Source: Catajapyx aquilonaris
Lineage: Eukaryota
Direction of reading: 5' to 3'
Assembly: GCA_000934665.2 (NCBI GenBank)
Contig: JYFJ02003901.1
Coordinates: forward strand, 1-36,561
Length of the DNA stretch: 36,561 nt
The notes below the pieces were generated by a model. That model saw only the letters and a list, made by a program, of their open reading frames with translations. It ran no database searches and was not told the origin of the DNA. A program made the translations under genes and the position numbers. How positions within the stretch are numbered: position 1 is the first letter of the stretch; every line of letters starts with the position of its first letter. Below, piece by piece: positions 6,840 through 33,492 of the stretch.

Positions 6840-8404
6840 ATGCCTGTGAAGTCGTGCCTGTGCTTCTTCTCTCTCAGAGGAGGGACCATCTTCGCAGGAC
6901 TTCTAGCTTTGGTAAGTTGCCCATATGCCCATCTCGACTGAACACTTCAGATTAGCTTTCTTTGCAACTAGGCCAACACGGCCAACATGCTTTAGTGTTC
7001 CTGGAGATTGACCATGTTTTGCACTGAATGGTCATTTTGAGCTACACCCCATAAGTAGTATAACTGGAATATTACAATGAATTTCCAGGAGGAAATATTA
7101 TTAGTCGACCAGACTGTACATAATTATGTATGTGTGTATTTTTTTGCAGTTGATCGCCCTCTACGCATTTGAGATATGCGTCAGTGCCATCGTAAACATG
7201 TTTATTCGCATAGGATTCAGCTTTGGAGGTTAGTATAGTGTGTCATGATGACTTTAATTGCTGCTGCATTTAGTGGAAATTTCTGGGAATTGTTTGCAAA
7301 AAAAATGTGCCATTTTGGTGCCAGATGTAGTACATGTGATCGTCTGGCCAACTTCCGGTCTCAGGTGATGATAAGGTCATACGTCCTCTGAGAGCCATTT
7401 ATAGCCTTTTAGTCCACTGTGCCATCTAAACATTATGCCACATAAAGTAGTGCAAAGCTAATGCTTGTTTTTATGGTCATTCCATAAATCTCCTATTTAT
7501 TAATAATAACTTTATAGTTACTTCCTAGGGTGCTCTTTATATTAGAGTTTGTACATGACAATATCTGTGCTAATATAGGGTGTGACCTATACTCATCAAT
7601 TAAATATTGTGATAAAATTGGACTGCCATATATGCTAATTACTGATCCTTATTATTGGGTTGGAGATGATTAATTAAAACAATCTAAAAATATAAATTAT
7701 GGCTTGTGTTTTATTTTCAGGGCATTTGATAACGGATCCTGTGTGGATTGTGATTTTATCCATTACCATTTATGCTGCGGGGTTCTTCATTTGCGCCATT
7801 ATTGCTCTGGTCGGAGTGCATAAGGTGCAGTATTAAGTGGAGTGCACAACAATTAATCCATAAGTGATTAGAAAACCTAGTTAAACCAGTAATAGCTTTT
7901 TTGCAATCATTATTATTAGTGTATTGAAGGCATTTTAGTCAAGATAGAGTTTAATGTTGTCCTGAAATGGTACAATGTGATTGTCAAGTCGTTTTTTTCT
8001 GACGAAATTAAGGTTATCTAGATTTATGTAAAAAGGTGATTATTATTTCAAAAGATAGTCGTAATTTCACAGATTTTTTTTGAAAGGTAATCGATTTCAG
8101 GTTTTCGATGTATGGCTAAAAATTCAGAGAAGTTTCGTCCTTACAGTACTTCTATTTACCATTTCTAATTTCCCTTTTCCAGAATCGCTACAGGCTGATG
8201 ATCCCATTCCTGATATTTTTATTGTTGAACGTGTTATTGATGGTGGCGATGTTAACTCTGTTCTCTTTTTATGAGTGGTTCGACACCATGTTCTTCTTCT
8301 ACACGCTGAACGGCGTAATTGCAAATATTTATTTCTTTATTGTTGTTTACTCGTATTCCTACTATGTTCGAAGATGTGCGTGCGCTGAAGGATTGTCCGT
8401 ATGA
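6840..8404 (+). CDS. T1: single-module four-TM protein, LAPTM4/DUF4728-like, ~158 aa
   Basis: Exons 6840-6911, 7150-7228, 7721-7824, 8183-8404 (intron phases 0,1,0). MPVKSCLCFFSLRGGTIFAG...GVHK/NRYRLMIPFL...IYFFIVVYSY. Family assigned by recalled motif resemblance, not by search. Confidence 0.82.
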
Positions 8405-9446: not shown

Positions 9447-10107
9447 ATGCAGTTGGCATCCTGCTTTGGATATTTCTCTCTCCGCGGTGGAAGTTTTTTT
9501 GCAGGATTGGTGGGAATGGTGAGTCCCAAGTTAACATGACTGAAATTGTCGCTAATTCTCTGCATTATTTTAGATGGTTGGATTGACAATGGCTGAGATG
9601 GGCATTTCCTATTTAATTGAGAGCGGCATGCACCCGGAAGTCCTGCATGTTGGTAAGCCATAGAGTAACAATTTTACCATGTGACAATAATATTCGGATA
9701 TGATGCATTTAAGGTTATGTTGTCCCATCCATGATTACTCTCTACGCATTGGGTCTCTCCATTAGTTCTGTGACAGCTCTGATTGGAATCCAGAAGGTAT
9801 TACTACATTTTTGCAGTCCATGCACCTTGATAAACCTGAAAAGAACATAATAATATGTAATTTTCAGGATCGTCCACAATGGCTGATTGCATTTTTTATC
9901 TTTCTGGGTCTCAACGTCATTATCATGATTTCTGTCTTAATTTACGTGAGTGTTGAGGCTGGGTTCATAGCTGCCTTGTTTTTTGTCGTGCTTAACTCGG
10001 TAGCAGCCCACATTTATTTCGCGCTCGTTGTGTACTCATTTGCGTTTAAGCTGCACCGGTATCAAAACTTGGAATCAGCCGACTCGCAGAACTCTCCGGA
10101 TGTCTAA
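9447..10107 (+). CDS. T2: single-module four-TM protein, paralogue of T1, ~157 aa
   Basis: Exons 9447-9518, 9574-9652, 9714-9796, 9868-10107; exon 1 and 2 lengths (72, 79) and phases match T1. MQLASCFGYFSLRGGSFFAG...GIQK/DRPQWLIAF...HIYFALVVYSF. Confidence 0.82.
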
Positions 10108-12887: not shown

Positions 12888-13362
12888 TATTGCGAAGTTT
12901 TACGAGCCTCCAAATAGCGGCTTTGTCGTTTTTGTTGAATAGCAAAAATGAACGGCTTGTCAGAAAAATGTAGTTTGAACACTTTGTTGGAGGCTATACA
13001 TTGTCGTAATAATTGCGACAATGTATGGCCTCCACAAAGAGTCCAAACTGTACGCTGACTATGGAGATCGCTCAAAATATTGTCAGAAAATTATGTATTG
13101 AATAGAAATTCAATAACGTCTCGAGAGTATCAGACGTGACTTGATATCATCAATCCTTAGCCGTCAAAAGAATTGAACGCACAATTGTTGGTCGTGCATT
13201 TTTATAACATGTGCACTTACGTTATTACGTCCTTGACACTGTCCTTCCATGACGCGATGTACAGTCACTTCATGCCAGCGTCAAATATGATTTAAAAATT
13301 CTTTCCTGTTTTATTAGTTTGTCTGAACATGAACATGTGTTGTCTGAACAAAATTGTACATC

Positions 13363-15109
13363 TTACACAAGCGGATCATTGCCCTGCTCTGTGGTGGTCA
13401 TGTTTGTGGTATGCCTGGTTCTAATTTCCTCACAATAGGAATACACCACAGATGTTAAATATATGTGCGGTAAAATGATGCAACAGAGAAGAGGACCATA
13501 CATTGTGTTTCTATCTCGGTAAAAGGTTATTGCAAAACCAGGCAAAAATATGGCGAGTATGACTTGAAGAATAATCCAGGGCTGTATCAGGTGATATTTC
13601 TCCTGAAAATAAAATATTGTTGCCAGCTCATTAGGGCCTTGGTTTGTTATCAATCGTAAAGCTGGTATGTACTTACTTTACGGATTCCGTATATCATGAT
13701 TGGTCCCGTAACTAACGACGCAAGAGAATATGCAGATGGTGGCAGTATAATCTCCAGTCCTGGTGGTATCAAAATGAGAAAGACTTAATAGCAATTACCT
13801 CTCAGGTTTATAGAGTCAATTGAGCCAATTAATATGAATGTTATTTCAAATGTAAAAGGCCATTCAAGTATATTTTAAGATTATATTGCCATTAATGTGA
13901 GCAGTATACTTACGCCACCAGCAGCTTGAGACAAAGCAGAAAATTATTCCAGCAGCTAGGAGCATCGACAGGGCCTGTGCAACAATATTAATGACAAACA
14001 ATCACTCCAACAATGGGCAAATTCAACTCATTTCAACTCACAGTGTAGATAGCACCAATGAAGAATGAGCCTTTCCTTGTAGACCAGGCCAGACAGCATG
14101 TATTCAAGTTCGGTATATCGACATTAATAGTAGGTGGCATGGCAGCGCCTAAAATGTGTTAAATACCTGAAGGAATCTGGGTAACAATTTTCTGGTGATC
14201 ACACTTACCAATCTCATGGAGCCGTAGTTCCTCATAGTAACAGTACACCACAAATATGAAATACACGTGAGGTATTATGATGCAGCCGATAATTAAGCCA
14301 GTCGCAGCCAGTACCTTATAGCCACATAATGCAACTGGAAAAAACATTCCATACACGACTTGAAGCATAATCCATGGCAGCATCAGACGGCATCTACCCT
14401 GCAAATATATAACAATAGTTGACTCAAAATCTAACTCTGCCTCACATACATTGCGTTTACACATTTTGTTCTTGAGTGTTTCTAGTGTCATCAGAAGAAA
14501 ACAAGTATTTTCTGCAACGCATACGACTTAATCATGTATAAATGCAAAACAGTACTCACTTTACGAATGCCATGTATCATAAGCGATGCCCCGATGATAC
14601 ATAAAGTCGAATAAATCAGTGGAGGCAATGTAAATCCCAGGCCTGAAATTATGGAAGCAGATATATATCTCTTAGCATGGCTTGTATAATTAATTAACAC
14701 TAATGAGCAGTTGTGACGCAGGCAGGACAAGACCTGCTTCATTTAAGGTGCTCATATTCTCTTCATTGCATTTACTCTTTATTAGGAATTATTTTCACAG
14801 GTTTCCTTTCAGTCCTGGTAGTGTGTACTGCGAATAATTTATAATGTAAATAACTTAACGTGAGAGGGCCATACATACCCAACCACATTCCGGGTGTGGC
14901 CGTAAGATATATTACAGGCACAGCTATCATGATCGACAGCACCTGCATTGTGTCAAATAGCATTGTTATGAATAAGACCCCAATCCCACTACTAATAGCA
15001 TGTAACTCACAATGTAGACGGCAGCAATGATCAGAGAACCGGTCTGTGTAGACCAGACCCGGCAGCATGTCCTGGCTCTTGGAACTGACACCGCGAAGGT
15101 CACGAGCAT
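13363..15109 (-). CDS. G1: double-module (2 x 4 TM) LAPTM4/DUF4728-like protein, 8 exons, ~308 aa, intact
   Basis: Exons 15109-15011, 14942-14879, 14642-14560, 14398-14209, 14148-14042, 13974-13914, 13759-13677, 13602-13363 (927 nt, no internal stop). Each module has TCC..WST..GS, GIRK, PWI.LQV and VVY.Y.EE motifs. Confidence 0.8.
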
Positions 15110-15946
15110 CTTGGAATCAGTATATAGACTACACAATGAGCAAATTAATATTAGCAAAAAGTCACGATGCCATGCTGCGCAGTGACAGGATCATAACTAC
15201 ATGTATACACGACCTTGCCTGCATTCCATGAACACACAATGTAGTCTGCTGGCTTGACTGACTCACAGTCAGCTCAGCGTGGTTCAGTGGAATGAAAGTG
15301 CCGGTGTGAAGAGGCGCTAGTGTCGAGGCCACATCCTGCTGGATACTACGAATGAGTGTGTTTCAGCTTCAAAAGATACGTAGTAGGTTCAGTGCTCTCA
15401 TCAGACTAATGCACACAGCAAAAACATATTCAGTGTAATTGAAAATGTGAATTAGTTTTTAAAATGGTAACCAGTCCTCTTCCAGATGTGCGATCAAAAA
15501 CAACTAATTTGCTGTCGCTTATCCTTGTATGGTGCGAAACTCCACAGTGCACACTAGCCAACATCACAAGAGAAATGTCAAATGGGAAAGAGTGACCAGG
15601 TAAAAAAAATACAGGTGTCAATTGGACACAAATGGTTTTCATTAATTAAGCACATCCCATTACATTGTAATACATGTTACAATTTTATTAATTTAGGATA
15701 TAAGTTACCGTATACAAATGCAGAGTTCAGGTACTTGCGAAATATTTCTCCAGTATTATCTGGCCTTCAGTTCGAGTTTTCGTTTACAGAGCCGAATATT
15801 GGCCGCATTTATTGTCGTTAAAAACAATAATATTATATTATACAAGGATTAAATTGAATTGTGCACTCCCCGATTGCACTGTTGTGCAATTGGCTGGTTT
15901 ACTCTCCTTGTTTTCTGCTTCATGATTCTTATTTGTATCCTACTGG

Positions 15947-17974
15947 TTAGACAAGTGGATAGCTGCTCGGCTCTGTAGCGGCTGTCTCTACTGGAGGGTG
16001 ATTGAGTCGGATTTTTTTATAATAGGAATACACCACAAATGTGCAGTACATATGAGGTATAATGCAGCATCCAACAAAATACCCACTGCCAATTAGTCGA
16101 TTATTGAAACCCAGGATGTAAATGACCAGAATGACTTGAAGAAGAATCCAAGGCAGTATCAGCTGGTATTTGTCCTGGGGAAAAAATTAACAGAATGTTA
16201 GAGATTGCTTTTGCTCATCAGTAATATTACTGATGAAGCCCTAACCCTATACAGTAGCCTACTCACTTTATGGATTCCATGTATCATAAGTGGACACACA
16301 ACCAAATAGGTAAGAGAAATGCCCAGTAATGGTAATATAAATACCAAATCTGTAAATCAAAATTTAAGTGGGGTGTAGCTTACAACACAGTACAGTTAGA
16401 GTAATATCATATGGAAGTGGTAAAGTACATACCCCAGTAGTAGCCGGCTACAATTAAATATATCATCGCAGAAGCTAGCAGAATCGCCAAAACCTAAAGA
16501 GCGAAAGCATCAAAGTTATTGGCAGTTTTCACAGGCGCGAAAATGATAAAAATGCAACTGACCATGTAGAGAACTGCAATACAGAGTGAGCCAGTCCTTG
16601 TAGACCATTCCAGACAAAATGTCTTCAGATTTGGTACATTCAGCTCGATATACGGTGGCAAGGTGGCACTCTCGGTGCTACCTGAGAAGAAATATACAGT
16701 AACATAACAATAAGTTCTAATATGGCACGTCCCACGTCATATATTATGCAAAACAATCAGGCTCCTAGTGTAATGATTTGGAGGTGAATACTTGAGGTGA
16801 TGACTTGCCATTCTGGGTAATTCTGAGTTCCTCATGATAGCAGTACACCACATACACTAAGTACAAGTGTACTGTGATGGTGCAGCTGAAAACAAATATG
16901 GAGACACTATGTCCGTCGCACATCTCAAAGCTGCACATGGCAGCAGGTATATACATCGCGGCGATGACTTGAAGTATGATCCAGGGTACCAGCAAGCGAC
17001 ATCTGCTCTGAAACCATAATCGTGTCAGTTACACACTAATATTTGCCTCTCACATGTCGATTAGGCCTATAACAAGTGGAGGCCTGTATGTTGTCACATT
17101 ATTTTTAGAAATAATTTACAGTAAGCCCTATAGAGCATAGACTCTCTATGTCGTTGGAAAATGACGAATTTTCGCCTGAATATGAACAAGCAAAGAAATG
17201 TTTACAGTTTTCAGAAAAGGGAAAAAATAAACTCACTCTACGTATGCCACGTATCATAACCGATGCCGCAGTGATACAGAAAGTTGAATAAACCAAAGGG
17301 GGTGCCAATCTATAATAATTTGGATCTGAAAATATACAGCATAACAAAAAAATGAAAAATATATGCAAATGAAGCGCTGTCTTTTTCCTGCCCCATGTTT
17401 TAGTAGTCGATGAATTTTTCAGGACTATAGTTTTTTTTCATTTGCATGTTAGTGCAAGCGATGCAAAATTTGAGCCATTTCTTTAAAAGAGGAGAGTTAT
17501 TTATTTATTTATTTACTTACTTACTTACTTACTTACTATTTATTCAATTTCTTTATTAGTGGTTTTGTTATTGTGATTGCCACCAGCATCACCACCACCA
17601 CCACCACTACTAGGTACTACTACTATTTGTTGTAAACTTCAGGTATGTACAGCTCTCCATACCATTAGGTTGAGAATAATTATTTGTGGTTAAACCAGAG
17701 GGTTAGCCTTTTTAAATTAATAATATGAGGCATACTTACGAAACCACCCTATGGATAAATCAACAGCAGTAGTATAAATTACAAGAGCAGCTATCACGAT
17801 CGACAGGACCTGCATTATAAAAGGGATTTTTTAAATTATTGCAACAAGCATGCTACTTAATAATGATAACGTGAAACTCACAAAGTAGATGGCAGCAACG
17901 ATCAGTGAACCGGTCTTCGTAGAAAAGACCCGGCAGCATGACCTGGCTCTTGGAAATGATACTGTGAAGGTCAT
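15947..17974 (-). CDS. G2: double-module 8-TM protein, apparently intact
   Basis: Eight exons homologous to G1; linker intron 16808-16682 needs a GC donor (G|GCAAGT); first ATG is ATA here so the next Met (MTFTVSFPRARSCC) is used; in-frame 15-nt deletion in last exon relative to G3; ends ...PSSYPLV. Confidence 0.72.
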
Positions 17975-18375
17975 GGCTATCTTGGAAACTGTGCACAATC
18001 AAGAGAGGAAAATACCAGCTGTTGCATGTGGGCTAGTTAACACGCAATTAAATATTAGATACGCTATGCAGACTGGAACTGCACCTCGCACTGCTCGTAT
18101 ACGTTGCACACACTCCACAGATTCAAATTTGCCTTGTTGTATACAGTTATATAGTGGATAAGAAATTCTTAGGATTAAAGTAGAGACACACACCTGGCTA
18201 ACACGTGGTCTTGAAGGCAATCGAATGCAGCCCACCAGGATCACTCTATGCAGCGTACTAAGCAACTAGAGGCATGCTCAGCTACGGTTGGAGGACTCGT
18301 GAGAGTTAATAATGCAGGGGAGCATGTGGGCGGTTCTCGCTTCGAGGACATGTGCTCATGGCTCTAGGCTGTTAC

Positions 18376-18420
18376 ACTGACAGTCCGAAGGTCACGGGCA
18401 TCTTGAAATCAGTACGCAAC
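18376..18420 (-). pseudogene. Truncated relic of G1 first coding exon at the duplication junction
   Basis: actgacagtccgaaggtcacgggcatcttgaaatcagta matches 15084-15122 (ATG plus about 8 codons), then homology stops. Confidence 0.7.
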
Positions 18421-19198
18421 TAGCAAAATAATATGAGCAAAAATTCACCATTCCATGTTACGCAGTGACAGGATCGTCATAACCATGGATCATAACTGTA
18501 CGTACACGACCTTGCCTGTGCATTCCCTGAACACACAATGTAGTCTGCTTGACTGACTCAGAATGAAAGTTCCGATGGGAAGAGGCGCTAGTGTCGAGGC
18601 CACATCCTGCTGGATACTACGAATGAGTGTATTTCAGCTTCAAAGATAGTATAGGTGGTATCGGTTCAGTGCTCTCATCATACATGCTGCACACAGCAAA
18701 AACACATTCACTCTACTTGAAAATGTGAATATATTGGTTTTTAAAATGGTAACAGTCCTTCCAGATGTGCGACCAAAAAACAATTTGCTGTCGCTTCTCC
18801 TTGTATGGTGCGAAACTCCACAGTGGAGGAGTAGCCTACATCACAAGTGCAATATGTCAAATGGCAAAGAGTGCCCAGGTAAAAAATAAAGGTGTCAATT
18901 GGGGACAAAGATTTTAAGAATTGATTAACCACATCCGGTTACATTGCCATACATATTACAATCTTCATTCATTTAGGATAAAGCGCATACAAATGCAGAG
19001 TTCAGGTACCTGTGAAATATTTCTCCAGTATTATCTGGCCTTCAGTTCGAGATTTCTTTTACAGAGCCAAATATTGGCCGCATTACATTATATACAAGGA
19101 TTAAATTGAATGGTGCACTCCACGATTGCACTGTTGTGCAATTGGCTGGTTTACTCTCCCTGTTTTCTGCTTCATGAATTCTATTTGTATCCTACTGG

Positions 19199-21148
19199 TT
19201 AGACAAGTGGATCACTACTAGGCTCTGTAGTGTCTGCCTCTACTGGGGGGTGTTTGAGTCGGATTTCTTCATAATAGGAATACACCACAAATGTGCAGTA
19301 CATATGAGGGATAATGCAGCATCCAACCAGAGACCCATTGCCCCAAATCAGTCGATTATTGCGAAAGGTTACAAGGAAACCCAGGCCATACACGGCCAGA
19401 ATGATTTGAAGAAGAATCCAAGGCAGTATCAGATGGCATTTGTCCTGGTGAAAAAAATTAACAGAATGTCAGCAATTGCTTTTCCTCATCAGTAATATTA
19501 CTGAAGCCCTAACCCTATACAGTACTACTCACTTTACAGATTCCTTGTATCATGAGTGGACACAAAACCAAATAGGCAAGAGAAAGGCCCAATATTGGTA
19601 ATAATAATACCAAATCTGTAAATCAAAATGAATGTGTGAGGTAGCTTACAACACAGTGCAGTTAGAGTAATATCAAGTGGAAGTGGTACATACCCCAGTA
19701 GTAGCCGGATACAATGCAATATATCATTGCAGAAGCTAGCAGAATCGCCAAAAGCTAAAGAGTGAATATAGAAAAGTTATTGGTAGTTTTTCACATGGGC
19801 AACAATGAGAAAAATGCAACTCACCATGTAGAGAACTGCAATACAGAGCGAGCCAGTCCTTGTAGACCATGCCAGACAACATGTCTTCAGATTTGGTACA
19901 TCCAGCTCGATAGACGGTGGCAATGTGGCACTCTCGGTGCTACCTGAAAGGAAATATACAGTAACATAACAATAAGTTATAATAATTATGGCAGGTCATA
20001 TATTATGCAAAACAATCAGGCTCCTAGTGTAATGATTTGGAGGTGAATACTTGAGGTGATGACTTGCCATTCTGGGTAATTCTGAGTTCCTCGTGATAGC
20101 AGTACACCACATACACGAAGTACAAGTGTACTGTGATGGTGCAGCTGAAAACAAAGATGGAGGCACCATATCCATCGCACATCCCAATGCTGCACATGAC
20201 AGCAGGTAAATACATCGCGGTGATGACTTGAAGTATGATCCAGGGTAACAGCAATCGACATCTGCTCTGAAACCATAACAGTGTCAGTTGCACTAATATT
20301 TGCCCCTCTCATAAGTCGATTATAAGAACTGGAGGATTTTTGCCTGAATATGAACAAGCAAAGAAATGTTTAGATTTTTCAGAGAATGGGAAAAAATAAA
20401 CTCACTGTACGAATGCCCCGTATCATAATCGATGCCGCAGTGAGACAGAAAGTTGAATAAACCAAAGGGGGCAATGTAATGTTTGGATCTGAAAATATAC
20501 AGCATAACAACAAAAAATGAAACAAATATGCAAATGAATAGCAGTCTTTTGCCGGCCCCATGTTTTTAATTTTTCAGGACTATACGTGTTTTCATCTGAC
20601 TGTTAGTGCAAGCTATGCAAAATTTGAGGCTGTTCTTAAAAAGAGGAGGGTTTTGGGAGAGTTATTTATTTATTTACTTACTTAGTTACTTATTATTTAT
20701 CAAACTTCTACATTTGTGGTCTTGTTATTGTGATTGCCACCAGCATCACTACCACTACTATACTACTACTTCTATTTCTTGTAAACTACATGTACAGTAC
20801 CTAGCGATGAAGCTCTCCACACTATTAGGCTGAGAATTATGTGCCATGCAACCAGAGGGCTAGCTTTTTCAAAATTAATGATATGAGTTATACTTACCAA
20901 ACCTCCACCGGCCTCTGGACAAATCAACAGCAGTAATATAAATTACAAGAGCAGCTATCACGATCGACAGGACCTGCATTATAAAAGGGATTTTTTTTTT
21001 AAATTATTGCAACAAGCATGCTACTTAATAATGATAACGTGAAACTCACAATGTAGATGGCAGCAACGATCAGTGAACCGGTCTTCGTAGAACAGACCCG
21101 GCAGCATGACCCGGCTCTTGGAATTGACACTGTGAAGGTCATGGGCAT
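19199..21148 (-). CDS. G3: double-module 8-TM protein, apparently intact
   Basis: Eight exons, MPMTFTVSIPRAGSCC...EPSSDPLV; GC-AG linker intron 20067-19944; module B exon has TTG where G1 has ATG. Confidence 0.75.
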
Positions 21149-21977
21149 CTTGGAAACTGCGCACCAGAGAGGAAATATCAACTGTTGCATGTGGGCCTAG
21201 TTAACACACCATTAATACTAAAGATACACTATGCAAACTGGCACTGCACCTCGCATGGTGCATACGTTGCACATACTCCACAGATTCAAACTTGCCTTGC
21301 TGCAGTTATAGCCGTTAAGAAATTCTTAGGAACTTACAGTAGGGCGAGACACACGTCTGGCGAACACGTGGACTTGAAGGCAATCGAATGCAGCCCACCA
21401 GGATCACTCTATGCAGCGTACTAAGCAACTAGAGGCATGCTCGGCTACAGTTGGAGGACTCGTGAGAGTTAATAATGTAGGGCAGGATGTGGGCGGTGCT
21501 CGCTTCGAGGACATGTGCGCATGTGAAAGAAACAAACTGCGCTACGCTGAACATGAAGGCGGGATAATGGCAGGTTTCCAAATGCTGGCAACAGAATCGA
21601 GCGAGGTTATCAAATTGTAAACAATAGCAACAAAACAACTGATAAAGTCGGTTAAGTGAGAAGTTTATGACACAGAAGTACGGGAACATCCTATAGTCAT
21701 CGATGATTTAAAAACATGAGTTAATTGATTGATTTATTTTACTCATGTGACAAAATGAATACACAAGGGAGAATAAGACGAAATTAATCAAATACGCAAG
21801 GAAATTTATTCGAACATGAATAAATCCTTCCCATATTTTGTAATAAATGCTCGAATATAATGGCATCAAAATAGCGTATAAGCTTCAGTGTTACTGAGAT
21901 TGCATCTGGATGTTATTATAATTATTATCATATTAGGCCAATAAAGCAATACAGTATATTGCGAGTGTTAGCACTGA

Positions 21978-24259
21978 TTAGACAAATGGATCGCTGCTCG
22001 GCTCTGTATTGGTTGCATCTGGGGTGTGCTTGAGTCTGATTTCTTCCCAGTAGCAATACACCACAAATGTGAAGTACAGATGAGGTGCAATGCAGCACCC
22101 GACGAGAGTGGAATTGCCAATGGGGAACCTGATGCGAAAAGTTAGCAGGAGATCCAGGGCGACCCAGGGTATATGTGGCCAGCATGACTTGAAGAAGTAT
22201 CCAAGGCATTATCAGCTGGTATTTATCCTGGTAAAAATATTTAACAGAATGTTAGCGAATCTTTCATTCATCAGTATAATATAGTGAAACCCTGCCCTTA
22301 CTCACTACGGATTCCTTGCATCATAAGCGGACTCAAAACCAGAGAGCCAAGGGAAAACCCCAACATTGTCGCTACCATCAGATAATCTGTGAACCGAAGA
22401 GAAAGTGCAAGTCAGCTCAGGACTAGATTTCTGTGACATTTGTATTTGCTGTGTACAAACACCTTTTTATATTGACATACTGTACAAAAAAGTTCAACAA
22501 AAAAGGGTATGTTCAAGCACATGTGCTACAAGGAAAAGAAAGTTTCGGCCAAGCTTCAGACACTAGTATTTTTTTTGCAACATAGTGCACGTTTGTCAAA
22601 ACTTTTTTTATACACTGCAGTTAGATGGTCAGAGAGTGACAAAACCTCAGTGGTATACAATCATACCCCAGTAGTAATCAGACACAAAGAAATATATCAT
22701 CGCAGACGCTATAACCAATGACAATACCTAAGGAATAAAGTAAAAATGTCATTAGCAAACACCATCTCGCCACAGGGATATATCATAAATCCGTCAGTAT
22801 TTAGTAAAGTGAAAACAAAATGAAAAAACATTTTTATATTAAACATATACTCATGTTACCGTATTCAATGTGTCCGTTTAGCAAATATTATCTAAAGTGC
22901 TGTTCTGCGGCAATGCAACTCACTGTGTAAAGAGTTGCAATCCAGAGGGAAGCAGTTCTGGTAGACCATACCAGACAGAATGTCTTCAGATATGGTACAT
23001 CCATCTTGACAGCAGATGGAAGGGTTACACCCTCGGTGCAACCTACAAAATATTTAATGGCGAGTTGATGCAAAATGCAACCATGAACCCATTGTTTTCC
23101 TGGTGATGACTTGCCATTCTGGGTGATTCTGAGTTCCTCATAATAGCAGTACACCACATATATGAAGTACAAGTGTGCTGTGATGGTGACGCAAAAGCCA
23201 AGGGCGGAGGCACCGTAATCAGAGCACATGATATAGTTGCACATGGCAGCAGGTAAATACATCGCGGCGATGACTTGAAGTATGATCCAGGGTAACAGCA
23301 AACTACATCTGCTCTGAAACCATATTCACCTGCCTGTCAGTTTTCACTATAATAGTTTCCTCTCATAATATAAGTGCAGAATATAATTATCAGATGCAAG
23401 AGTGTTGTCAATCCTTGAGATAACATAAGCGTTTCCTTGGTGGAAAATGATTAGCTTTTGCAGGAATAATAGTGAAAAACGAAGTGTTAGTATGTTTCAA
23501 TTAAATTATGTAAAAGTAAACTCACTGTACGGATGCCATGTATCATAATCGATGTCACAATGAAGCAAAATGCCGAATAAAGCGAAAGAGGCCATGTGTA
23601 TGCCAGACCTGAAATCATTAAAAAATAATTAGAAATCTATTATGTTATTGAGTAAGCTCATATGTGTAGCATAGCCTTGATCAATTTTGTAGTACAGTAC
23701 AGTCGTTAATCTTATTGTTCCCTCAAGCACAAATTTAAGCAATGGTATATCATGCAACAAAATGCAACAGGAATATGATTTAAAGCTGGATTTAAAAACT
23801 CAACCAGTCAATGAACGCATACATTTTATGCATAATAATTGTACCATCATAGCGTGCATTGCAACCATTGTTTCTTTTCGAAAAAGGGTTAATATAAAAT
23901 AATACTTGCAATGTCTCGTGAAATATGCATAATTATACAGTATACGTATTATTAGTCTTATAGAACGTTTATCTAGGTTAATATTAATTATTTGGGAGTC
24001 ATACGTTCACTAATTCAAGCACTAATCCAAAGTTTGTAGGTCCAAGCAGCATAAGTTTCGTAGATTACAGGAGCAGCTGTTAGGATCGACACGACCTACA
24101 GTACACAAAACGGTAATAATTTTTAATGAGACAATGGCGATATTATTATATGAAACTCACAATGTAGAGGGCAGCAATGATCAGTGACCCTCTCCTTGCA
24201 GACCAGAAGCTACAACATGTCCTGGCTCTAGGAACTGACATTGAGAAGGTCAGTGCCAT
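21978..24259 (-). pseudogene. G4: double-module gene with disabling lesions
   Basis: In-frame TGA at 24017-24015 in exon 2, 2-nt loss before the exon 7 donor (~22306), 10-nt duplication frameshift at 22150-22169 in exon 8; ancestral end ...SSDPFV TAA at 21980-21978. Confidence 0.72.
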
Positions 24260-25316
24260 CTTGGAATCTGTATATACAAAAAGTGTAAATACAATCACTG
24301 CATGTACGAGTATAACAATGTAACGATGGTCTTTGAAAATACGAGCAATTACAAGAAATGATGTCTTCTCCGGTATTCCTTGATCTCTCAGCAGTAACGT
24401 ATCAAGAGTTCAACGACCACCTAGGAAGGACACATCCGGTGAATAGTTGCAAACAGCAAATGAGTAATATATTAGCCACTTGTTTAATCTGCGGCACAAT
24501 GTGGTGAAGAGGGCTGGTTCGCACAGTCAAGTGACAGGAAGAGACGCACGCCCTCTTCCGTTGTGCAGATGGACCTATACGATAAATTATTGTTTATATG
24601 CACTGCTTTTTCGTCCTGTCATTCAGATATGATTTTTTTTTCTCACACTTTATAGTTGTAGGTGACTGAAGTGCTAACGCCTCCGGGACGAGCGCAGGCA
24701 CCCCGGCAGACTCTGCACTCAGAGATTTCCAAAAACAATAATTTTAAATATAATTATGGCCCCGCTAGTGTCTGGGTCAGACGTTCTCAATGTCAAGTCC
24801 GCACACATTTCATGGATTTATTTTCATTTCAGTACACATGTTATACCAAAATGCTGGTAACAGTCTGCTGATGGGTTATTGTTTTGTACTGTACATTACC
24901 TTATTGCGTATACACGCCATTAAAACCATAGAAGGACACATTTATAACATGTTGTGAACGAGGTCAAAGTTCATGGACAGTGGTTTCATTGTGATTAAAT
25001 CGCCCGTGTTCAGCATAAAGTAAGGGCCATCTTAGGTACAGCATATCCCATTCTGCTGCAACTGTAAGTAATGTTGCTCTAAATGATGTTGGAAGACGGC
25101 AAATTATAGGATACATATAGGATATGCGTCCATTTACTCGCATGATTTGAAGAAAAAAAAATCGGTGGTAACATCATTAGCGGTGGCAAATGAAATTTTA
25201 TGGTGTGCATTAGTTTTGTTCAGCCAGTAAACCTCCATTCGTCGCAGACATTGAGGCATGTGCCGAAATGTGAGAAAAGTTCAAATAATATAGCCACAGA
25301 ATGATGATCTCAAAAA

Positions 25317-26580
25317 TCAAGCAAGAGGATCAGAATTCTGGTCAGAATTCTGGTCAGAATTCATTGGCTCTGCAGCGTTTTTGGTTCTCAGCTCTTCGTA
25401 TTAAGAATATGCCACATGTATGAAGTAAATATATGGCAAAATTGTGCAGAAGATAAGTGGTCGATAAACATAGAATCTTAATCTTATAAAATATAATGCA
25501 AATACTGGCATAAATGGGACCACTGTGATGTGCAGCAGGATCCACGGCATCATCAAGCGGCATCTCTCCTGGGAAAGCATTATTATACACAAGAATCACT
25601 GATAAAAATGATGTGAACAAAATGTGTGTTCGAAATAATTATTAACAATCAGACGTCTTACTTTTCGGATTCCGTGTAGCATCAGCGATGACAGAGGCAG
25701 GCAAAAAGCAGAATACACCAAACCGACGATTGCATATGCTAGGTCTGAATGAAAAAAAAATGAGATGTACAACATGAGTGTAAGTCATACTCTCACCGTA
25801 AGAAAAGCAGCAATGAGTAATAATTAATTTTGAATAATATTGATTTGCTCACATTGAAAGTATAATGTAGCAATTACTATATATAGCCTACCCCAGTAGT
25901 AGAGTCTCGTTGCAAAATATATTATTCCTGAAGCAACGATGGCGATGGATGCAACCTGTATGCAATCAGCATAAATATTATTGTCAAATTAATATGGGTT
26001 ATATGAGTTAAAGGGTCCAGATAATAATAAATCAACCCACAATGTTCAGGGCAGCAATCATGATGGATCCGGTTCTTGTAGACCACGCTATACAGCAGGT
26101 TCTAGCACTGGAGAATGAAACAGTACAAGTTGCTGTCTGAGCCGAATCTGTAAAGAATGAACCTTTTTTTAACAGTGGAAGGAGGAGTTATTTTCAGAGG
26201 CACAGGCATGAACTCACTGGTGTCTTTGAGTCTCAGTTCTTCATAATAAGTGTACACGACCAATAGGAAGTAGAGCTGTGGTATGATGGAGCAGCCCAAG
26301 AGCGGGATATAATAATTATCATAATTATAGTACTTATAATTATATTTATCATAATAGGTCTTAAAATCCAAGCACAGAATAGTCGGAAAATACAGTGCTA
26401 CGAGGATGTGAAGAAGCCAGGGCAGCATCAGGCGGCATCTCTCCTAAAAAAAACAATAAAAAAAACAATAACAATAAATAAATAAATAAATAAATAAACG
26501 GTCATTAGCCCTGCTCCTACAAATTCCAGGGTAGTGGTAAAATGACGCAAAGGACAATGACTACTACGACGACGACGACG

Positions 26581-26672
<92 letters not shown>

Positions 26673-27552
26673 CCCTTCGAATTCCATGAATCATAAGAGA
26701 AGACGCAAAGATGCAGAGAGGGAAATACACACATGGGACGAATGAATACCCCATCAATGGAGCTAAAATTAAACTCGTGAATTAATATTCAAAGAATACA
26801 TGATCGGGAAGAAAGTTTCTCCCTCCCTCTCGGATCTATAGGTTCCTTGAAATATTATAAGGCCAAATTGCCGGATTTGATTGAGTTGATTTCGATTCTA
26901 CGTGTAATATTGGAGGTATTCCTGTGGGTTAGGCCAATCCCCTACGTCCCTTGCTGAATGGGTTGCCTGATGCACAGGATGACACTGTAATAGGCTACCG
27001 TATACATATGCATTGTCCAATGTTAACATGCCATTATCTCCTGAGCCTAACATTGATAAAATCAACTGGGTATTGGAATATCTCAAGGAGCCCAGGTCCG
27101 GCAAGTTATGTTCATTTAACATGAATTATTGTGCGACACTGCAAAATCAATCATGGAAGATATTCTTTTAGTTCTCTTTCCTCTCCACCTTCCTGCTGTT
27201 CAGGGTGACAACAACACATATGTGTGAGGCTACTTCTCATTTCTGCCGAAATGGATGTAATATTTATATTATGGAACGCACTGCACTATGTAATATTTCT
27301 TATAGGGGGTGTGTTTACCTTTGATCCCATATGACGTTAACATGTATGCGCCGTAAGAAGCTGCGACACTCGACACCACCTATGAAGTACGGAGTAAAAA
27401 AAAGTGTTTATCACAAACGGGCATAATTTAAATGCAAAATAAAATGAGTCACTCACCATGTAGAGTGAGGCGATGTAAAGTACAAAGTCCTGAGAGACCA
27501 AGCCAGGCAACAGGTATTGGGATATGGTTTTCATCGTCCAAGTAAACGACAT
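25317..27552 (-). pseudogene. G5: double-module gene (second subfamily), degenerate or C-terminally truncated
   Basis: Exons 27552-27457, 27379-27319, 26762-26674, 26443-26218, 26147-26041 plus three more. Compensated -2/-1 frameshift in exon 1; premature TAA at 25403-25401 where G6 has TAC; ancestral stop at 25319-25317. Could still encode all 8 TMs. Confidence 0.62.
26560..26670. repeat. (ACT)n/(ACG)n microsatellite in G5 intron 3
   Basis: Trinucleotide run that begins inside the GTGAGT donor on the minus strand. Confidence 0.97.
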
Positions 27553-28021
27553 TGTAAAGCCTGGAATAAGAAAATAGCTAAAATTATTTTATTATTGCCA
27601 CATTTAAATAAGTGCCATAAAGTTTCTATGTGAATGGATCGGAAATGACTGTCGACACAGTAATACTCGCCTTGTGTATTGTCGGCCGAACAGACAATGC
27701 TGATGTGAATAAAATACCCTTACCCCTACCCGTACACGAAGCCGGCCAAAAGGTTCAATGATCGGAAAGACCACGGTACGCAGGTCTACGGCACTATATT
27801 TAAAACGCTGGTGGCGCTAGTGACGTCAGGTTATAGGATCTCTAAGGACACGTCACGGCTCCTAAAAATAATTATTGCTTCTACACAACATGTACGGATT
27901 TTAGACGCATAGCCGTGGACCAATCTATACGTACGTTTTGTTTACCTGGTACATGAAGACGACATAATCCTGCGTACAACAATGTAGTGTGTATTCTTCC
28001 ATAGATGAAGTGTTGTAAAAT

Positions 28022-28360
28022 TATTTTTTTATATACCCCGTGATAGGGCCATAGGCCCTTATAGGGGAGTGGAATACCACCATTTTTCCTTCAATTTTCT
28101 GTTTTTTCTTCTAACTCCGGTGCAAGGATGAAAGGACATGGGGTAAGGATAGGGATTTTTGGGGAGGGAACATAGATGCAAGTGCAATGTCGTAGCTAAT
28201 GGGTCATGTGCTGTTCCCCAGGAGGTTAGGTTGCCAGACACCTCCTTGGTGCAGGTCAGAGACCCTCCTGACGCAGGTGAAAGGAAAGTTCCCCAGGCGG
28301 GGATCGGGCCTTTCACTCAGCAAGCCGAGACGTTACCATCTCGGCCATCTACACCTCCCC
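28022..28360 (-). mobile_element. tRNA-derived SINE with 15-bp TSD
   Basis: TSD gaagtgttgtaaaat at 28007-28021 and 28361-28375; minus-strand head with A-box-like TGGCCGAGATGGTAA and a degenerate B box; A-rich tail. Confidence 0.8.
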
Positions 28361-28660
28361 GAAGTGTTGTAAAATAATATTGTACAATACTTCAGAATAA
28401 TTATTATATTAATTATGTTATTTACTATATTATAATAATCATAATTATTATTAAATTTTGAATGCCGTGTAAAATAAGGTCACATATAAATCTTAATCAG
28501 TAAATAATAAAACAGACTTATACAAAACATGATTGAGTAGCCTATTGAAAACTGCAAAATAATGTTCTTCAATGTGTATAATATTATATAGACACCTCAG
28601 CAGCAACCTATAGTGCTGACCATGTGCTGACCTGTACGCTGACCCCCTGGGACCAGCGCA

Positions 28661-29019
28661 GTATAATATAATAATAATAATGCTGGGGTAATGTGCTTTC
28701 GCCCCCACATGGCCCACATGGGGGCATATCGCACGGACCTTTATTTATTGGGGTACTGTACATTTGGTGCCTATTCATTTGAAACGCCAGGGCCCACGGG
28801 CAGGATGCAAGGAGGGGATGTGCAAGGTGCAGTGCAATGTCTTAAACGTGGCCATTTTTAGTGAACTCCCCGGGTGGTTTAGTCTGTTGGAAATACCACC
28901 CGAGACGAAGCCAGAGGTGACCCTGAACTCTGCACGAGCTGAAGGGGGTGTCCCCGGGCTGAACCCGGGACCTTAACATCCGTGGGCGCATACGTTACCG
29001 CAGCACCACTCCGCCTCCC
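28661..29019 (-). mobile_element. tRNA-derived SINE with 20-bp TSD
   Basis: TSD gaccccctgggaccagcgca at 28641-28660 and 29020-29039; head GTGGTGCTGCGGTAA ... GGTCCCGGGTTCAGCCC (A/B-box-like); (TTA)n tail; paralogous empty site near 24680. Confidence 0.85.
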
Positions 29020-29761
29020 GACCCCCTGGGACCAGCGCAATACAGATTCTGTACAAGCATAAAAATTTCTAAAGATAATTTTCAAAATATTATGTCCCCG
29101 GATGCGCAAGTGCCTGGGTCAGTATTCCGTATAAGCGCTGTATTCCATGTCTCTTTATTTCGATTTCAATACAACTGGTGTACAAAAACACGAGTAACAA
29201 TAAACTGGCGGGTTATTGTTTTGTATATTACACAGCGTACATACCATAAAACCATACAAAAATTACAAGTTCATGTTGTGAATGAGGCCAAAGTTTATGG
29301 AGACTAGTTTTATTGTGATTAAGTCTCTTTCTGTTCAGTATGCAGTATCTGACATCTTAGGTACAGCATATCCCATAATGCTGTAAGTAATGTTGGCCTA
29401 CAGCATGTTGGAAGGCGGGAAATGTTGGATGTAAATTCATTATTACAAGTAACCATACATACAGTAAAATAATAATAATGTCCTGGATATACAGCATATC
29501 CGAATAAAGCATAGAAATAAAATTGTTAGGGAATGTGCACAAAGTATTCCCTTCTTCTGATAGGCGTAATTATTTGAGAGTTTTTCCCGAAGTGACATCA
29601 TGGCAGCGGATAACATGACTTTATGCTTTTTTGGTGTATAAGGTCCATTAGTATTGTTAAGCAAGTAGACCTCTTTTCGTCGCTGACCTTGAGCTACTAG
29701 AGAAGTTCAAAAAGTATAGCTATATAGGGCCTACATAAGAATGATGATTTCACATGAAACA

Positions 29762-32413
29762 TCAAACAACAGGATCGAAACTCGGGTCAGAATTCATTGG
29801 CTGTTCCGCGTTTCTGGTTCTTAGCTCTTTGTAGTAAGAATATGTCACTAATATGAAGTAAATATTTGGCAAAATAGTGCATAACATAAGGGGCTTATAA
29901 GCATACCATCCAGGTTCCTCTAAAAATGATACCAATCCCGGCAAAAATGTGACCAATGTGATCTGCAGCAGCATCCACGGCAGCATCAAGCGGCATCTCT
30001 CCTGGGAAAACATAATTATACACGAACGTCAAAAATCAATGATGCGTACAGATGTGTACGGATTTAGCCATAATTAGACCACTTACTTTTCGAATTCCGT
30101 GTATCATAAGCGACGACAGAGGCAGGCAAAGAAAGGAATACACCAAACCAACGAATGCAAGTTGTAGAGCATCTGAATGTTTTTTTAAAAAGTGAGATGT
30201 ACAGTACATAAGGGTGAGTCATGCTCTCGCTGTAAGAAAGGTAGTAATGAATTATTGCAGATGTAGAGGCCGGCATGGTAGGCCCTACACTTGAAATATT
30301 CTGTCATTGTTTTCATAGCATTCCTTGCATTAAAAAGTAATTACTCGTAATCTCAACCTCACAGAAGACATGTAAAAGTGAAATGGCAAATGAAGACTAG
30401 TAGGTACTTATAAAAACAGATAGATGAACACTTCTAAATTGGATATTTTCCTAATGCAATATATTGTCGCGTCTGCCTTAGTAGCAATTATTTTGCATTA
30501 AGCTGCTTATTATTCATCTGTTACTGACAGCATTTCAAACAGGTTTGGTAATATCATTTTCATTAAGAGTTAAATTGCACATATTTAAAGTAGAATAAGG
30601 TAAGGAATTATACATGCAATATACAGAACTATACCCCAGTAGACGGTTCCTTTCGTCACATATGTTGCTCCTAAAGCAGCGATGACTATGGACACAACCT
30701 GTGTGAAACCATCATCAATCGTCAAATGAATTTGGAGTGAAAGTGTCAAGGTAACAAATCAACCCACAATGTACAGGGCAGCAATCATGATGGATCCGGT
30801 TCTTGTAGACCACGCTATACAGCAGGTTCTAGCACTGGAGAATGACACGGTACAAGTTTCTGTCTGAGACGAATCTGTAAAGAATGAACATTTTGGAAGA
30901 AGGAGTTGATTTGAGAACGACACAGAGGCACAGCCGCACAGGCATGAACTCACTGTTGTCTTTGAGTCTCAGTTCTTCATAGTAAGTGTACACGACAAAA
31001 ATGAAGTAGAGCTGTGGTATGATGGTGCAGCACAAGAACGGGATATGCGAATAAGGTCTAGGTGCATCCAGCAGCAGAAGAGCCGGAAAAAATAGTACTA
31101 TGAAGATGTGAAGCAGAAGCCAGGGCAGCATCAAGCCGCATCTCTCCTAGAAACAAAATAATGTGACGATGCATAGAGTAGTCACTAGTGGCAAAATGTT
31201 ACAAACATTTATTATTAATGCTACTACCTTACTCACCCTTCGAATTCCATGAATCATAAGCGATGACGTAATGATGCAGGGGGGGAAATATAAACATAGG
31301 AGGAGTGTATATGTCGCCCATGTGTGCCGGTGTGGCGCTGCGGTAGTGCCGTATGGTCCGGTAAGGGTCCCGGGTTCCATCCCAAGCCCGAGCTTTCGCT
31401 CCTTCATCTCGCGCAGAGTTAGGTAGTCTCTGGTTTTGTCTACAATTTAAATGTGTAAATTAATTCAAAGTGCACAGGATAAGATTGTTAAGAGAGGTCC
31501 GCACTTCCTCTCGGATCTATAATAGGTTCCTTGAGCTATTCTCATACGAAATTACCGCGTTTAATTGTGGTGATTTCGAATCTATTATACCTATAATGGG
31601 AGGTAATCCTGTGGGTTATGCCATCCCCCAATCTCACTTGAAAAATGGGTTGCCTGCTCCACAGGATGACACCTATAACGTCCGAAAATGCAAAGTTAAA
31701 ATGTCATAATCTCCATAACCTATTCGAAATCGCTAAAATCAACTGGGGTAGTTTCACCTTGGAATATCTCAAGGAACCCACCACTTCGCGGTTTGGGGGG
31801 ATCTAGGCGATCACTTTGAGTATATGCGACATGGGCATCTGACGCATAGTTACTGAGATAATGTGCTCAAAGCACAAAGTGTACAATATCCTGGCACGTA
31901 TGCGTCCCTCCATGCGACCTTACCTTTTTCATTTAAATTTAAGGTGTTACCATGCAATTTAATTTTTATTTACGATCCTGTTAGGTGTACCAGGGAATGT
32001 CCTAGGCAATGGAAGCGTCGTAAGCAGTATCCGAAACCTATAAGCTGAGATAAGGCACTTATTATTTAAATCTAATTATCTCGGTAACTATGATTCGGAG
32101 ACTCACGATTCCTATATTTAAAATGATCGTCTGGAAGCCCTCGCATCCCCAAAGCGAAGGTAGATTAAATTTCCGCACCCTGTGTAAAATACCAAAACAT
32201 TCCTCGACCGTGGTATGCGCCGTAAGCAGCTGCGATAATGGACGCCAACTATAAAACACGAAGGAAAAGTTTTTATTATAAAAGTGCCTATCGGTAATTA
32301 ATTTAAAATGCAAAATGAAATGATTCCCTCACCATGTAGAGTGCAGCGATGCAAAGTGAACCAGTCCTGAGAGACCAGGCCAGGCAACAGGTTTTGGGAT
32401 AGGGGTTGGTCAT
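29762..32413 (-). CDS. G6: double-module 8-TM protein (second subfamily), ~347 aa, with SINE-derived insertion in the first module
   Basis: Exons 32413-32333, 32248-32179, 31439-31237, 31146-30954, 30874-30768, two further exons, and 30001-29762; phases consistent, no stops. MTNPYPKTCCLAWSLRTGS...SDPSFDPVV. Start Met uncertain (GTG at the position of the G5 ATG). Confidence 0.72.
31324..31440 (+). mobile_element. 5' fragment of a tRNA-SINE embedded antisense in G6 exon 3
   Basis: gtggcgctgcggtag...ggtcccgggttccatccc...ccttcatctcgcgcagagtt...ctctggttttgtct aligns by eye with the head of the SINE at 28661-29019. Confidence 0.8.
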
Positions 32414-32721
32414 CGTGCAAGTCAACGACACTGTAATGCCTGGAATAACAGCCGGAATATTACTGACATTTAAATAACTGCCCTACACCCTGTATGTGTG
32501 TATGAATCAGAAATAACTGATGACACAGTCATACTCACCCTGTGTATTGTCCGACTGACAGTGCCGATGTGAAGAAGTCCTCAAGCGTCTGTTTTTGATG
32601 CTACACGAAGACAGCCAAACGTTGCAATGATTGGAGGGGGGAAAAGCCTTCCAAGCACGTCTATATACAGTGCAATTTTATTTATGAAGCCAGAGGCGCT
32701 AGTGTCAAGGACAGCTTATAG

Positions 32722-32857
32722 CAAGGGGGTAATCACTCGACTGAAAAGTGTACACTGGAGTACCACGGAGTAATAAAGAGTGAGGTGCCTGAGGAGTACC
32801 AGGGAGTACCACTCCCAGGTGTACACCGGAGTACCGAAGTGATTACCCCCTTGATTG
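32722..32857. mobile_element. 136-bp hAT-like mini-element
   Basis: 16-bp inverted repeats caagggggtaatcact/agtgattacccccttg, 8-bp direct repeat gcttatag at 32714-32721 and 32858-32865, internal GGAGTACC repeats; absent from the paralogous G5 upstream site (~27830). Confidence 0.75.
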
Positions 32858-33492
32858 GCTTATAGGATCTCGAGGACACGCCATGGTTCAATATATTTTT
32901 CTAGAGAACTTGAACTGTACGGCATTCAGGGCCGCATTAAGGTTTTTTGCGCCCCAAGCCCGAAGAAGAAATGCGCCCCCCCCCCCNATGCCAAATTATT
33001 TTACAATTTAATGTCATTAGGTCACTTGCAGGTGAGTAATAATTATACAATTATTAGATTTCAAAAACGTCAGGAAATAGACTTCAAATTGCACAATTTT
33101 AAATTACAATTAACTTCAAAGCCTCATTTCAGATGAGAGCTGGGAGCATTTTGTTCAGATAGATTCTTCTTATGAGGAATCAACAGGAATTATTTTAACT
33201 TGTTTTACTTGCACTTAAATTGTCTTAAATGTTAACACCAAGTAACACTTACAAGTTCAGCATTTAGTGGAAAACCTTTTTTCTAGACTTCTTTTCTGCA
33301 AACTGAATTAATAACTTGTCAAGGCACAGTGTTTCAAGTTTATCACTTTCGATTGAAAGCAAAGACAGTGCAGACCTGCTTCAGTTCCTGCTTCATTGTA
33401 GCACGGAGTTCTGATTTGATTAGTTTAAGTTTTGAGCAAGTTCTTTCACCCTTGCAATTGGTTGCAAAATTGCACAAATACATTCTTAGAAT

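Follow-up and report, generated by a model that had tools for sequence, protein, structure and literature searches.

A tandem array of six paralogous genes for putative double-tetraspan proteins of a DUF4728/pasiflora-like type in Catajapyx aquilonaris

Are small four-exon modules that stand in pairs along a contig separate genes, or are they the halves of longer ones? The question is raised by a locus of Catajapyx aquilonaris (NCBI GenBank assembly GCA_000934665.2, contig JYFJ02003901.1, positions 1 to 36,561 of the forward strand); this whole stretch of 36,561 nucleotides, AT-rich eukaryotic DNA with 38–46% GC, is referred to below as the window. Between positions 13363 and 32413, the minus strand carries twelve four-exon modules with the intron phases 0/1/0, which are paired (module A followed by module B) into six eight-exon genes, G1 to G6. 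We consider it probable that the locus consists of six paralogous genes in tandem, each of which encodes or once encoded an eight-pass protein of the DUF4728/pasiflora-like type that consists of two diverged tetraspan modules.

Gene structure and the A–B junctions

A scan with regular expressions for four family motifs (CC..WS, HGIR, PW[IL]LQ and YxEE[LI]R) gave 37 matches, which lie within 13420 to 32389 and are without exception on the minus strand, the plus strand having none. The exons of G1 were read base by base, and those of G2 to G6 were placed by splice-site and phase-constrained scans and then assembled with a script. The layout of twelve four-exon 0/1/0 modules in six pairs, which an initial annotation of this DNA had proposed, was borne out by the reading, the scans and the assembly, the sole exception in exon structure being exon B3 of G4 with 81 nt instead of 83. 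In all six genes, the last exon of module A closes with a phase-1 donor exactly four codons past the EELR motif ('a few codons' in the earlier description), and an acceptor 60–127 nt further on leads in frame into module B, as had been described. Given as the last base of A and the first base of B on the minus strand, the junctions are 14209/14148 in G1 (intron 14149..14208, 60 nt, GTAAGT..TTTTAG), 16809/16681 in G2 (16682..16808, 127 nt, GCAAGT), 20068/19943 in G3 (19944..20067, 124 nt, GCAAGT), 23115/23042 in G4 (23114-23043, 72 nt, GCAAGT), 26218/26147 in G5 (70 nt, GTGAGT) and 30954/30874 in G6 (30953-30875, 79 nt, GTGAGT); the five of them that had been listed before all proved exact in the assembly. 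All six linker introns share the same alignment position and phase. The donors were as first described in position and phase, but in G2, G3 and G4 they are GC instead of GT, which had been overlooked. Linker introns of 60–127 nt, three of them GC-AG, are the sort of feature that makes annotation pipelines split or truncate genes.

Contigs spliced across the A–B junction were found in the only public run listed (X1), the kind of which is not on record ('?'). Its Logan contigs (85,611 records), which are assembled from 31-letter words and contain 41% of the sampled G1 words, were compared with positions 13250-32900. Record 1 (1091 nt, depth 18.6, minus strand) has eight joints with GT..AG ends, and its listed pieces have 0 mismatches. 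The joints correspond to all seven coding introns of G1 and to an 85-nt intron in the 5' untranslated region (UTR; 15128|15214; CT..AC), across which a 5'UTR exon at 15214..15298 (minus strand; upstream end approximate, taken from the contig side length of 85) is spliced to 15128. The joint 14147|14208 skips 60 nt, and exon A4 (record positions 352-541) adjoins exon B1 (542-648). The G1 stop codon and the 3'UTR fall within the piece that ends at 13303, and an AATAAA is located 48 nt past this stop, near the end of the contig. G1 itself (13363..15109, minus strand) is an intact coding sequence for 308 amino acids, with module A exons at 15109-15011 (ATG start), 14942-14879, 14642-14560 and 14398-14209, the splice sites of which follow the GT..AG consensus, and module B exons at 14148-14042, 13974-13914, 13759-13677 and 13602-13363 (stop). 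Formally, the intron-free form of G1 could also be a DNA retrocopy.

Record 2 (457 nt, depth 7.55) has a joint at 16680|20067 that skips 3386 nt and, read on the minus strand with a one-base shift, is GC..AG, so that a GC donor is in use; the sites used are donor 20068 of G3 and acceptor 16681 of G2. The contig joins exons A3-A4 of G3 (2 mismatches) to exons B1-B2 of G2 (0 mismatches). G2 and G3 do not differ at any of the 44 nt around the spliced A4|B1 junction, and with contigs made of 31-letter words an assembly chimera is therefore inseparable here from a recombinant haplotype or a cross-gene splice; the contig counts only as evidence that one or both of these genes have an A4|B1 junction. 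For the same reason, we dropped the idea that it represents a real recombinant gene or a splice between paralogues. Of the junction sequences that the initial annotation had named as a check, that of G1 (14209/14148) was found, as was a GC-AG A4|B1 junction of the G2/G3 type in the chimeric contig, both in contigs of short words only. The depth of X1 is 0 or near 0 over G4, G5 and most of G6, which makes the run uninformative on their expression; the last bin (32274-32900), overlapping exon A1 of G6, has a depth of 16.9 of uncertain origin.

The other five genes are all on the minus strand. G2 (15947..17974; 313 amino acids) has exons at 17974-17882, 17809-17740, 17325-17237, 17007-16809, 16681-16563, 16493-16433, 16349-16267 and 16174-15947, with contig joints at 16491|16561 and 17988|18194, and G3 (19199..21142; 319 amino acids) has exons at 21142-21050, 20973-20898, 20488-20406, 20266-20068, 19943-19825, 19754-19694, 19615-19533 and 19444-19199, with contig joints at 20266|20406 and 19443|19532. 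G6 (29762..32413; 313 amino acids) has exons at 32413-32333, 32248-32179, 31337-31237, 31146-30954, 30874-30768, 30698-30635, 30172-30087 and 30001-29762, its least certain splice site being the acceptor of exon A3 (31337). Like G1, these three are open from ATG to stop over eight exons. In G4 (21978..24259), module A is intact (24259-24161, 24095-24023, 23608-23526 and 23313-23115) and module B is broken (B1 23042-22924, B2 22727-22667, B3 22386-22306, 2 nt short, and B4 22227-21978). G5 (25317..27552) is damaged, with exons at 27552-27457 (A1), 27379-27319, 26762-26674, 26443-26218, 26147-26041, 25955-25892 and 25744-25662 and exon B4 from 25568. The six sound genes implied by the initial annotation are hence four, namely G1, G2, G3 and G6, while module B of G4 and the frame of G5 are disrupted by frameshifts or a premature stop.

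If the modules were twelve independent single-module genes, separate A and B tetraspans would be the normal products and the A4–B1 splice would be a minor read-through ('conjoined gene') isoform. We regard this as unlikely, and the start codons of the B modules are the first reason: in G2, G3, G5 and G6, the stretch from the upstream stop to the Cys motif in exon B1 has no in-frame ATG, as had been noticed earlier, and their B1-frame ATGs (16565, 19827, 26061 and 30788, respectively) occur only downstream of this motif, although G1 (14140) and G4 (23004) do keep an in-frame ATG upstream of it. An A-only protein is possible from an unspliced A4, which meets a stop after 14–41 further codons in five of the six genes (in G1, for example, at 14159); the linker intron of G4, 72 nt long, in frame and stop-free, would on retention add 24 residues with no truncation. 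Yet the gaps of 60–127 nt are too small for a terminator and a promoter, and five of the six contain no poly(A) signal (AATAAA or ATTAAA). Moreover, the position and phase of the donor are conserved in 6/6 genes, module B is as constrained as module A (see below), and, although the contigs give no isoform ratios, the only G1 contig listed in X1 is the spliced form. The covalent A–B fusion that had been proposed is therefore supported by the G1 contig with its seven coding junctions, by the contig with the GC-AG junction, and by the four B modules that have no start of their own.

Relationships, selection and decay

The identity between A and B within one gene is 31–46%, that between G2 and G3 is 81% in both modules, and two single-module genes in the window, T1 and T2, share 14–22% identity with any G module. 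A maximum-likelihood tree was built from the twelve G modules with T1 and T2, an X being entered wherever a module is broken. All G modules group in one clade apart from T1 and T2 (support 100/100), and the A modules of G1 to G4 form a clade (98/97) with the topology (G1,(G4,(G2,G3))). Module B of G2 pairs with that of G3, and both modules of G5 pair with those of G6; the deeper nodes are open. An assignment of the G5 and G6 modules as orthologues of the A or B modules of G1 to G4 was tried and dropped, because the tree leaves it unresolved and the per-exon scores conflict: against G1 to G3, exon 4 of G5 and G6 scores A-to-A and B-to-B, exon 1 shows the reverse, and exon 3 of both modules looks A-like.

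The ratio of nonsynonymous to synonymous substitution rates (dN/dS) was calculated per module by the Nei-Gojobori method. The long-term constraint on both halves is equal and moderate: dN/dS for A and B is 0.39 and 0.39 in G1 vs G2 (dS 0.8–1.0), 0.39 and 0.36 in G1 vs G3 (dS 0.7–1.0), and 0.33 and 0.37 in G1 vs G6 (dS 1.5–1.6). For the closer pairs, the values are 0.78 and 0.79 in G2 vs G3 (dS 0.13–0.15) and 0.62 and 0.94 in G5 vs G6 (dS 0.22–0.43). Furthermore, the introns of G2 and G3 are 81–100% identical and have diverged no more than the exons; intron 1 (17881-17810 vs 21049-20974) is identical at 72/72 positions and the linker intron at 97.5%, while the exons show proportions of synonymous and nonsynonymous differences (pS and pN) of 0.12–0.135 and 0.09–0.11. 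Introns that are as conserved as exons, or more so, give a hint of gene conversion patches or of diversifying selection on the coding sequence. The earlier description of the family as fast-evolving is supported by these ratios (0.36–0.39 for G1 vs G2 or G3 and 0.78–0.79 for G2 vs G3), and that of its birth-and-death evolution by the whole-gene duplications in the tree and by the frame-breaking lesions of G4 and G5. The label 'lineage-specific' had been added as well; its basis is blank database searches only, and it is not established.

As for these lesions, the 81 nt of exon B3 in G4, in place of 83, lead to an immediate stop in exon B4, and exon B4 itself differs from that of G3 by a 10-nt insertion and other indels, with a frameshift near 22160. 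In G5, exon A1 (27457-27552) has, compared with G6, lost 2 nt directly behind the ATG and 1 nt at a distance of 50 nt from there; the two deletions scramble about 16 codons, including the Cys-Cys motif, into unrelated residues, after which the frame is restored (a compensated frameshift). In addition, an in-frame TAA is present in exon B4 of G5 at 25403-25401, just before YEELR. The assembly has a single N at 32987, and assembly errors are, in principle, a possible cause of the indel-type lesions of G4 and G5. Two further peculiarities were seen in G5: a Tyr/Asn/Asp-rich insertion, DKYNYKYYNYDNYY, in exon A4 (26290-26350), which falls into the loop between transmembrane (TM) helices TM3 and TM4, and a long trinucleotide microsatellite in the intron upstream of this exon (26517-26690), which would read as poly-Ser, poly-Thr or poly-Tyr depending on the frame.

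Such damage raises the possibility that the whole cluster is a decaying, largely non-functional set of duplicates in which transcription and splicing persist and the proteins no longer matter, and the two frame-breaking lesions in module B of G4, the scrambled A1 and premature stop of G5, the ratios of 0.78–0.79 (G2 vs G3) and 0.94 (module B of G5 vs G6), and the database searches that gave no relatives would all fit it. Nevertheless, four open reading frames (ORFs) of 308–319 amino acids have stayed intact over eight exons each with their splice sites preserved, the deeper comparisons (dS 0.7–1.6) give dN/dS of 0.33–0.39, and all modules have kept the motifs PW, HGIR and VVYxYYEE[LI]R. We hold decay of the entire array to be improbable; it is two copies, G4 and G5, that appear to be decaying.

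Family membership, membrane topology and the points against

To which family do the modules belong? Pfam was scanned with contiguous exon-4 peptides only (n = 14), and the gathering score of DUF4728 (PF15860) is 26.7 bits. DUF4728 was matched by six of the 14 peptides at E ≤ 1 (best 0.0023; profile positions ~22-91 of 91), and no other Pfam family was matched by more than one of them. In the ESM Atlas, the top clusters for one B-type and one A-type exon had scores of 0.93 and 0.92, with 198 and 197 of 256 features shared, and 19% of the cluster members carry PF15860, which is a lead and not a proof. DUF4728 in turn is tied to the pasiflora tetraspans through Drosophila CG15098 (see below). According to the part of the source available (PMC4582180), pasiflora proteins have four TM helices, intracellular termini and a PW at the start of TM3, and the place where TM4 meets the C-terminus reads VxSQYQ in Pasiflora1 and a shortened VxS in Pasiflora2. 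PW is found at the start of TM3 in 12/12 G modules and 0/2 T modules, and the end of TM4 reads VYS in module B of G1, G2 and G3 and in T1 and T2 (VxS thus in three of six B modules), VYC or VYT in the A modules, and VYC, AYS and TYS in module B of G4, G5 and G6, respectively. From these sequence features, the modules probably belong to a DUF4728/pasiflora-fire-exit-like family.

The likeness to the pasiflora/Fire exit proteins (Drosophila Pasiflora1 and Pasiflora2, and CG15098 'Ikebana'; DUF4728 PF15860, Mtp) lies in the small four-helix format of ~145–170 amino acids, in the PW of all G modules (a trait described in PMC4582180), in the V-x-S-like motif that ends TM4 in some of the modules, and in the consistent sub-threshold DUF4728 matches together with the ESM Atlas neighbours. 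However, the described members are single four-TM proteins, whereas here two modules are fused into an eight-TM chain, the first extracellular loop is short, QYQ is lacking, and a Cys-Cys motif precedes TM1. The closest architectural analogue is MYADM of the MAL family, the eight TM segments of which come from two tandem MARVEL domains, according to the part of the source available (PMC3078064), so that there, too, two tetraspan domains of the same family, fused in tandem, make up an eight-TM protein. The two are unrelated in sequence, no exon peptide matching MARVEL at E ≤ 1.

That the modules are instead LAPTM4/5-type (Mtp) endolysosomal proteins and the doubled protein a lysosomal adaptor is very improbable, for although Drosophila CG15098 of the pasiflora tetraspan family is predicted to have both Mtp and DUF4728 domains in the portion of a preprint available (10.1101/2024.04.13.589362), which makes the two Pfam families overlap, and although the initial annotation drew the same link, no exon peptide matched Mtp (LAPTM4/5) at E ≤ 1. 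Of the LAPTM4/DUF4728 relationship suggested there, the DUF4728 part stands at sub-threshold level only and the Mtp part found no Pfam match among the exon peptides.

A crude Kyte-Doolittle scan gave four hydrophobic blocks per module and eight per fused protein, and basic residues are located in the N-termini and in the TM2–TM3 loops (e.g. RKGRCR). An even number of helices per module together with a basic N-terminus and TM2–TM3 loop suggests an N-in/C-in topology, in which both ends of each module should be cytoplasmic; the A–B linker of about 35 residues should then be cytoplasmic as well, and the topology of module B would be preserved on fusion. It was also observed that a conserved ...[DY]P[LFV]V-COOH tail closes five of the six B modules (13366-13383, 15950-15967, 19202-19219, 21981-21998 and 29765-29782), that T2 ends in ...PDV, and that the A modules have lost the tail. 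One may speculate that it is a C-terminal sorting or PDZ-type signal.

Several observations weigh against the reading of the array as six fused genes of a DUF4728/pasiflora-like family. With regard to the transcripts, X1 carries no RNA label, contigs of 31-letter words show single junctions and not one molecule from ATG to stop, and the second contig is chimeric. With regard to the genes, both G4 and G5 are damaged, and the young copies evolve almost neutrally (G2 vs G3 at 0.78–0.79, module B of G5 vs G6 at 0.94). With regard to the family, none of the modules reached the 26.7-bit gathering score with single-exon peptides, and T1 and T2 have neither a DUF4728 match nor the PW motif. The VxSQYQ sequence is absent, QYQ being replaced by YYEE[LI]R in all modules, and while the first extracellular loop of pasiflora proteins is described as larger in the available part of PMC4582180, the TM1–TM2 loop has only about 8–10 residues in module A of G1 and 17 in module A of G6. 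Finally, neither the A4-linker-B1 ORF of G4 nor the exon-4 alignment found relatives in protein databases: a search of representative proteins with the 145-amino-acid G4 ORF gave 0 hits at E ≤ 1e-3, and a PDB profile search with the exon-4 alignment gave 0 at E ≤ 1.

Possible history and role of the fusion, and the surroundings of the array

How could such genes have come into being? Tandem expansion after an internal duplication is a common route in evolution. We assume that a single-module four-exon gene, of the kind surviving as T1 and T2, might first have been duplicated in tandem and that two copies then became fused by read-through, where the stop of A would have been removed by a phase-1 donor that arose four codons after the EELR of TM4, and the frames would have been joined by a new acceptor in the former 5'UTR of B. 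The in-frame Met of module B in G1 aligns with the initiator Met of module A, which is the trace expected from a read-through fusion of tandem copies. That the linker intron has one position and one phase in 6/6 genes argues for a single ancestral fusion and later duplications of the whole gene, in which the fused eight-exon gene would have been copied whole at least five times, with the copies G4 and G5 now apparently decaying. The regions upstream of G1, G2 and G3 are homologous by translation (15162-15362 vs 18490-18633, and 18215-18367 vs 21378-21620); this shared upstream sequence and the 5'UTR introns seen in X1 for G1 and G2 imply that the duplications carried the 5'UTR and promoter along.

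The relatives that would represent the unfused state are T1 (158 amino acids; exons 6840-6911, 7150-7228, 7721-7824 and 8183-8404) and T2 (157 amino acids; exons 9447-9518, 9574-9652, 9714-9796 and 9868-10107), both on the plus strand. They have four exons with the 0/1/0 phases, as the initial annotation had rightly stated, belong to the same length class as the G modules and share the 'YF..VVYS' end of TM4, but they differ from them in being without PW and Cys-Cys, on the opposite strand and unfused.

The DUF4728/pasiflora family has members that are essential for septate junctions in Drosophila; to our knowledge, it has neither a structure nor a known mode of assembly. A transcribed head-to-tail fusion in which the two halves are under equal constraint points to a pair of tetraspans as the working unit, and the product would be a covalent 1:1 A–B pair, which could serve structural and cell-biological studies as a construct of fixed stoichiometry. 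If pasiflora, claudin and MARVEL tetraspans are taken as models, its role may be that of a cis-oligomerising membrane or junction scaffold, not of an enzyme or transporter; the initial annotation had inferred a transporter, channel or junction function. No doubled DUF4728/pasiflora protein was found in the literature searched on DUF4728 and pasiflora, within the parts of the sources available. A bolder and unlikely idea is that pasiflora-type tetraspans are obligate A–B cis-heterodimers, which this lineage has hard-wired into one chain, and that the rapid turnover of the array stems from diversifying selection acting on a protein of the epithelial barrier or of surface recognition, which might, for example, be targeted by pathogens or symbionts. 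The copies gained and lost, the G2/G3 exons that diverge at least as much as the introns, and the dN/dS of about 0.8 could be read as signs of such turnover. If this were true, the fused genes would be a natural tool for defining the dimer interface in a family whose structure is not known.

Around and within the array, two other features were recorded. The segment 28338-28993, between G5 and G6, is a high-copy repeat with a summed X1 contig depth of 2432, compared with about 4–19 on the genes; its loose ends resemble a tRNA T-arm, which suggests a short interspersed element (SINE), and Rfam gave no family at the gathering score over the whole window, tRNA included. Upstream of T1, three long exons on the minus strand (3283-4449) belong to a gene of the CD36/scavenger-receptor class B family, with Pfam CD36 E-values of 6e-34, 2e-24 and 3e-18.

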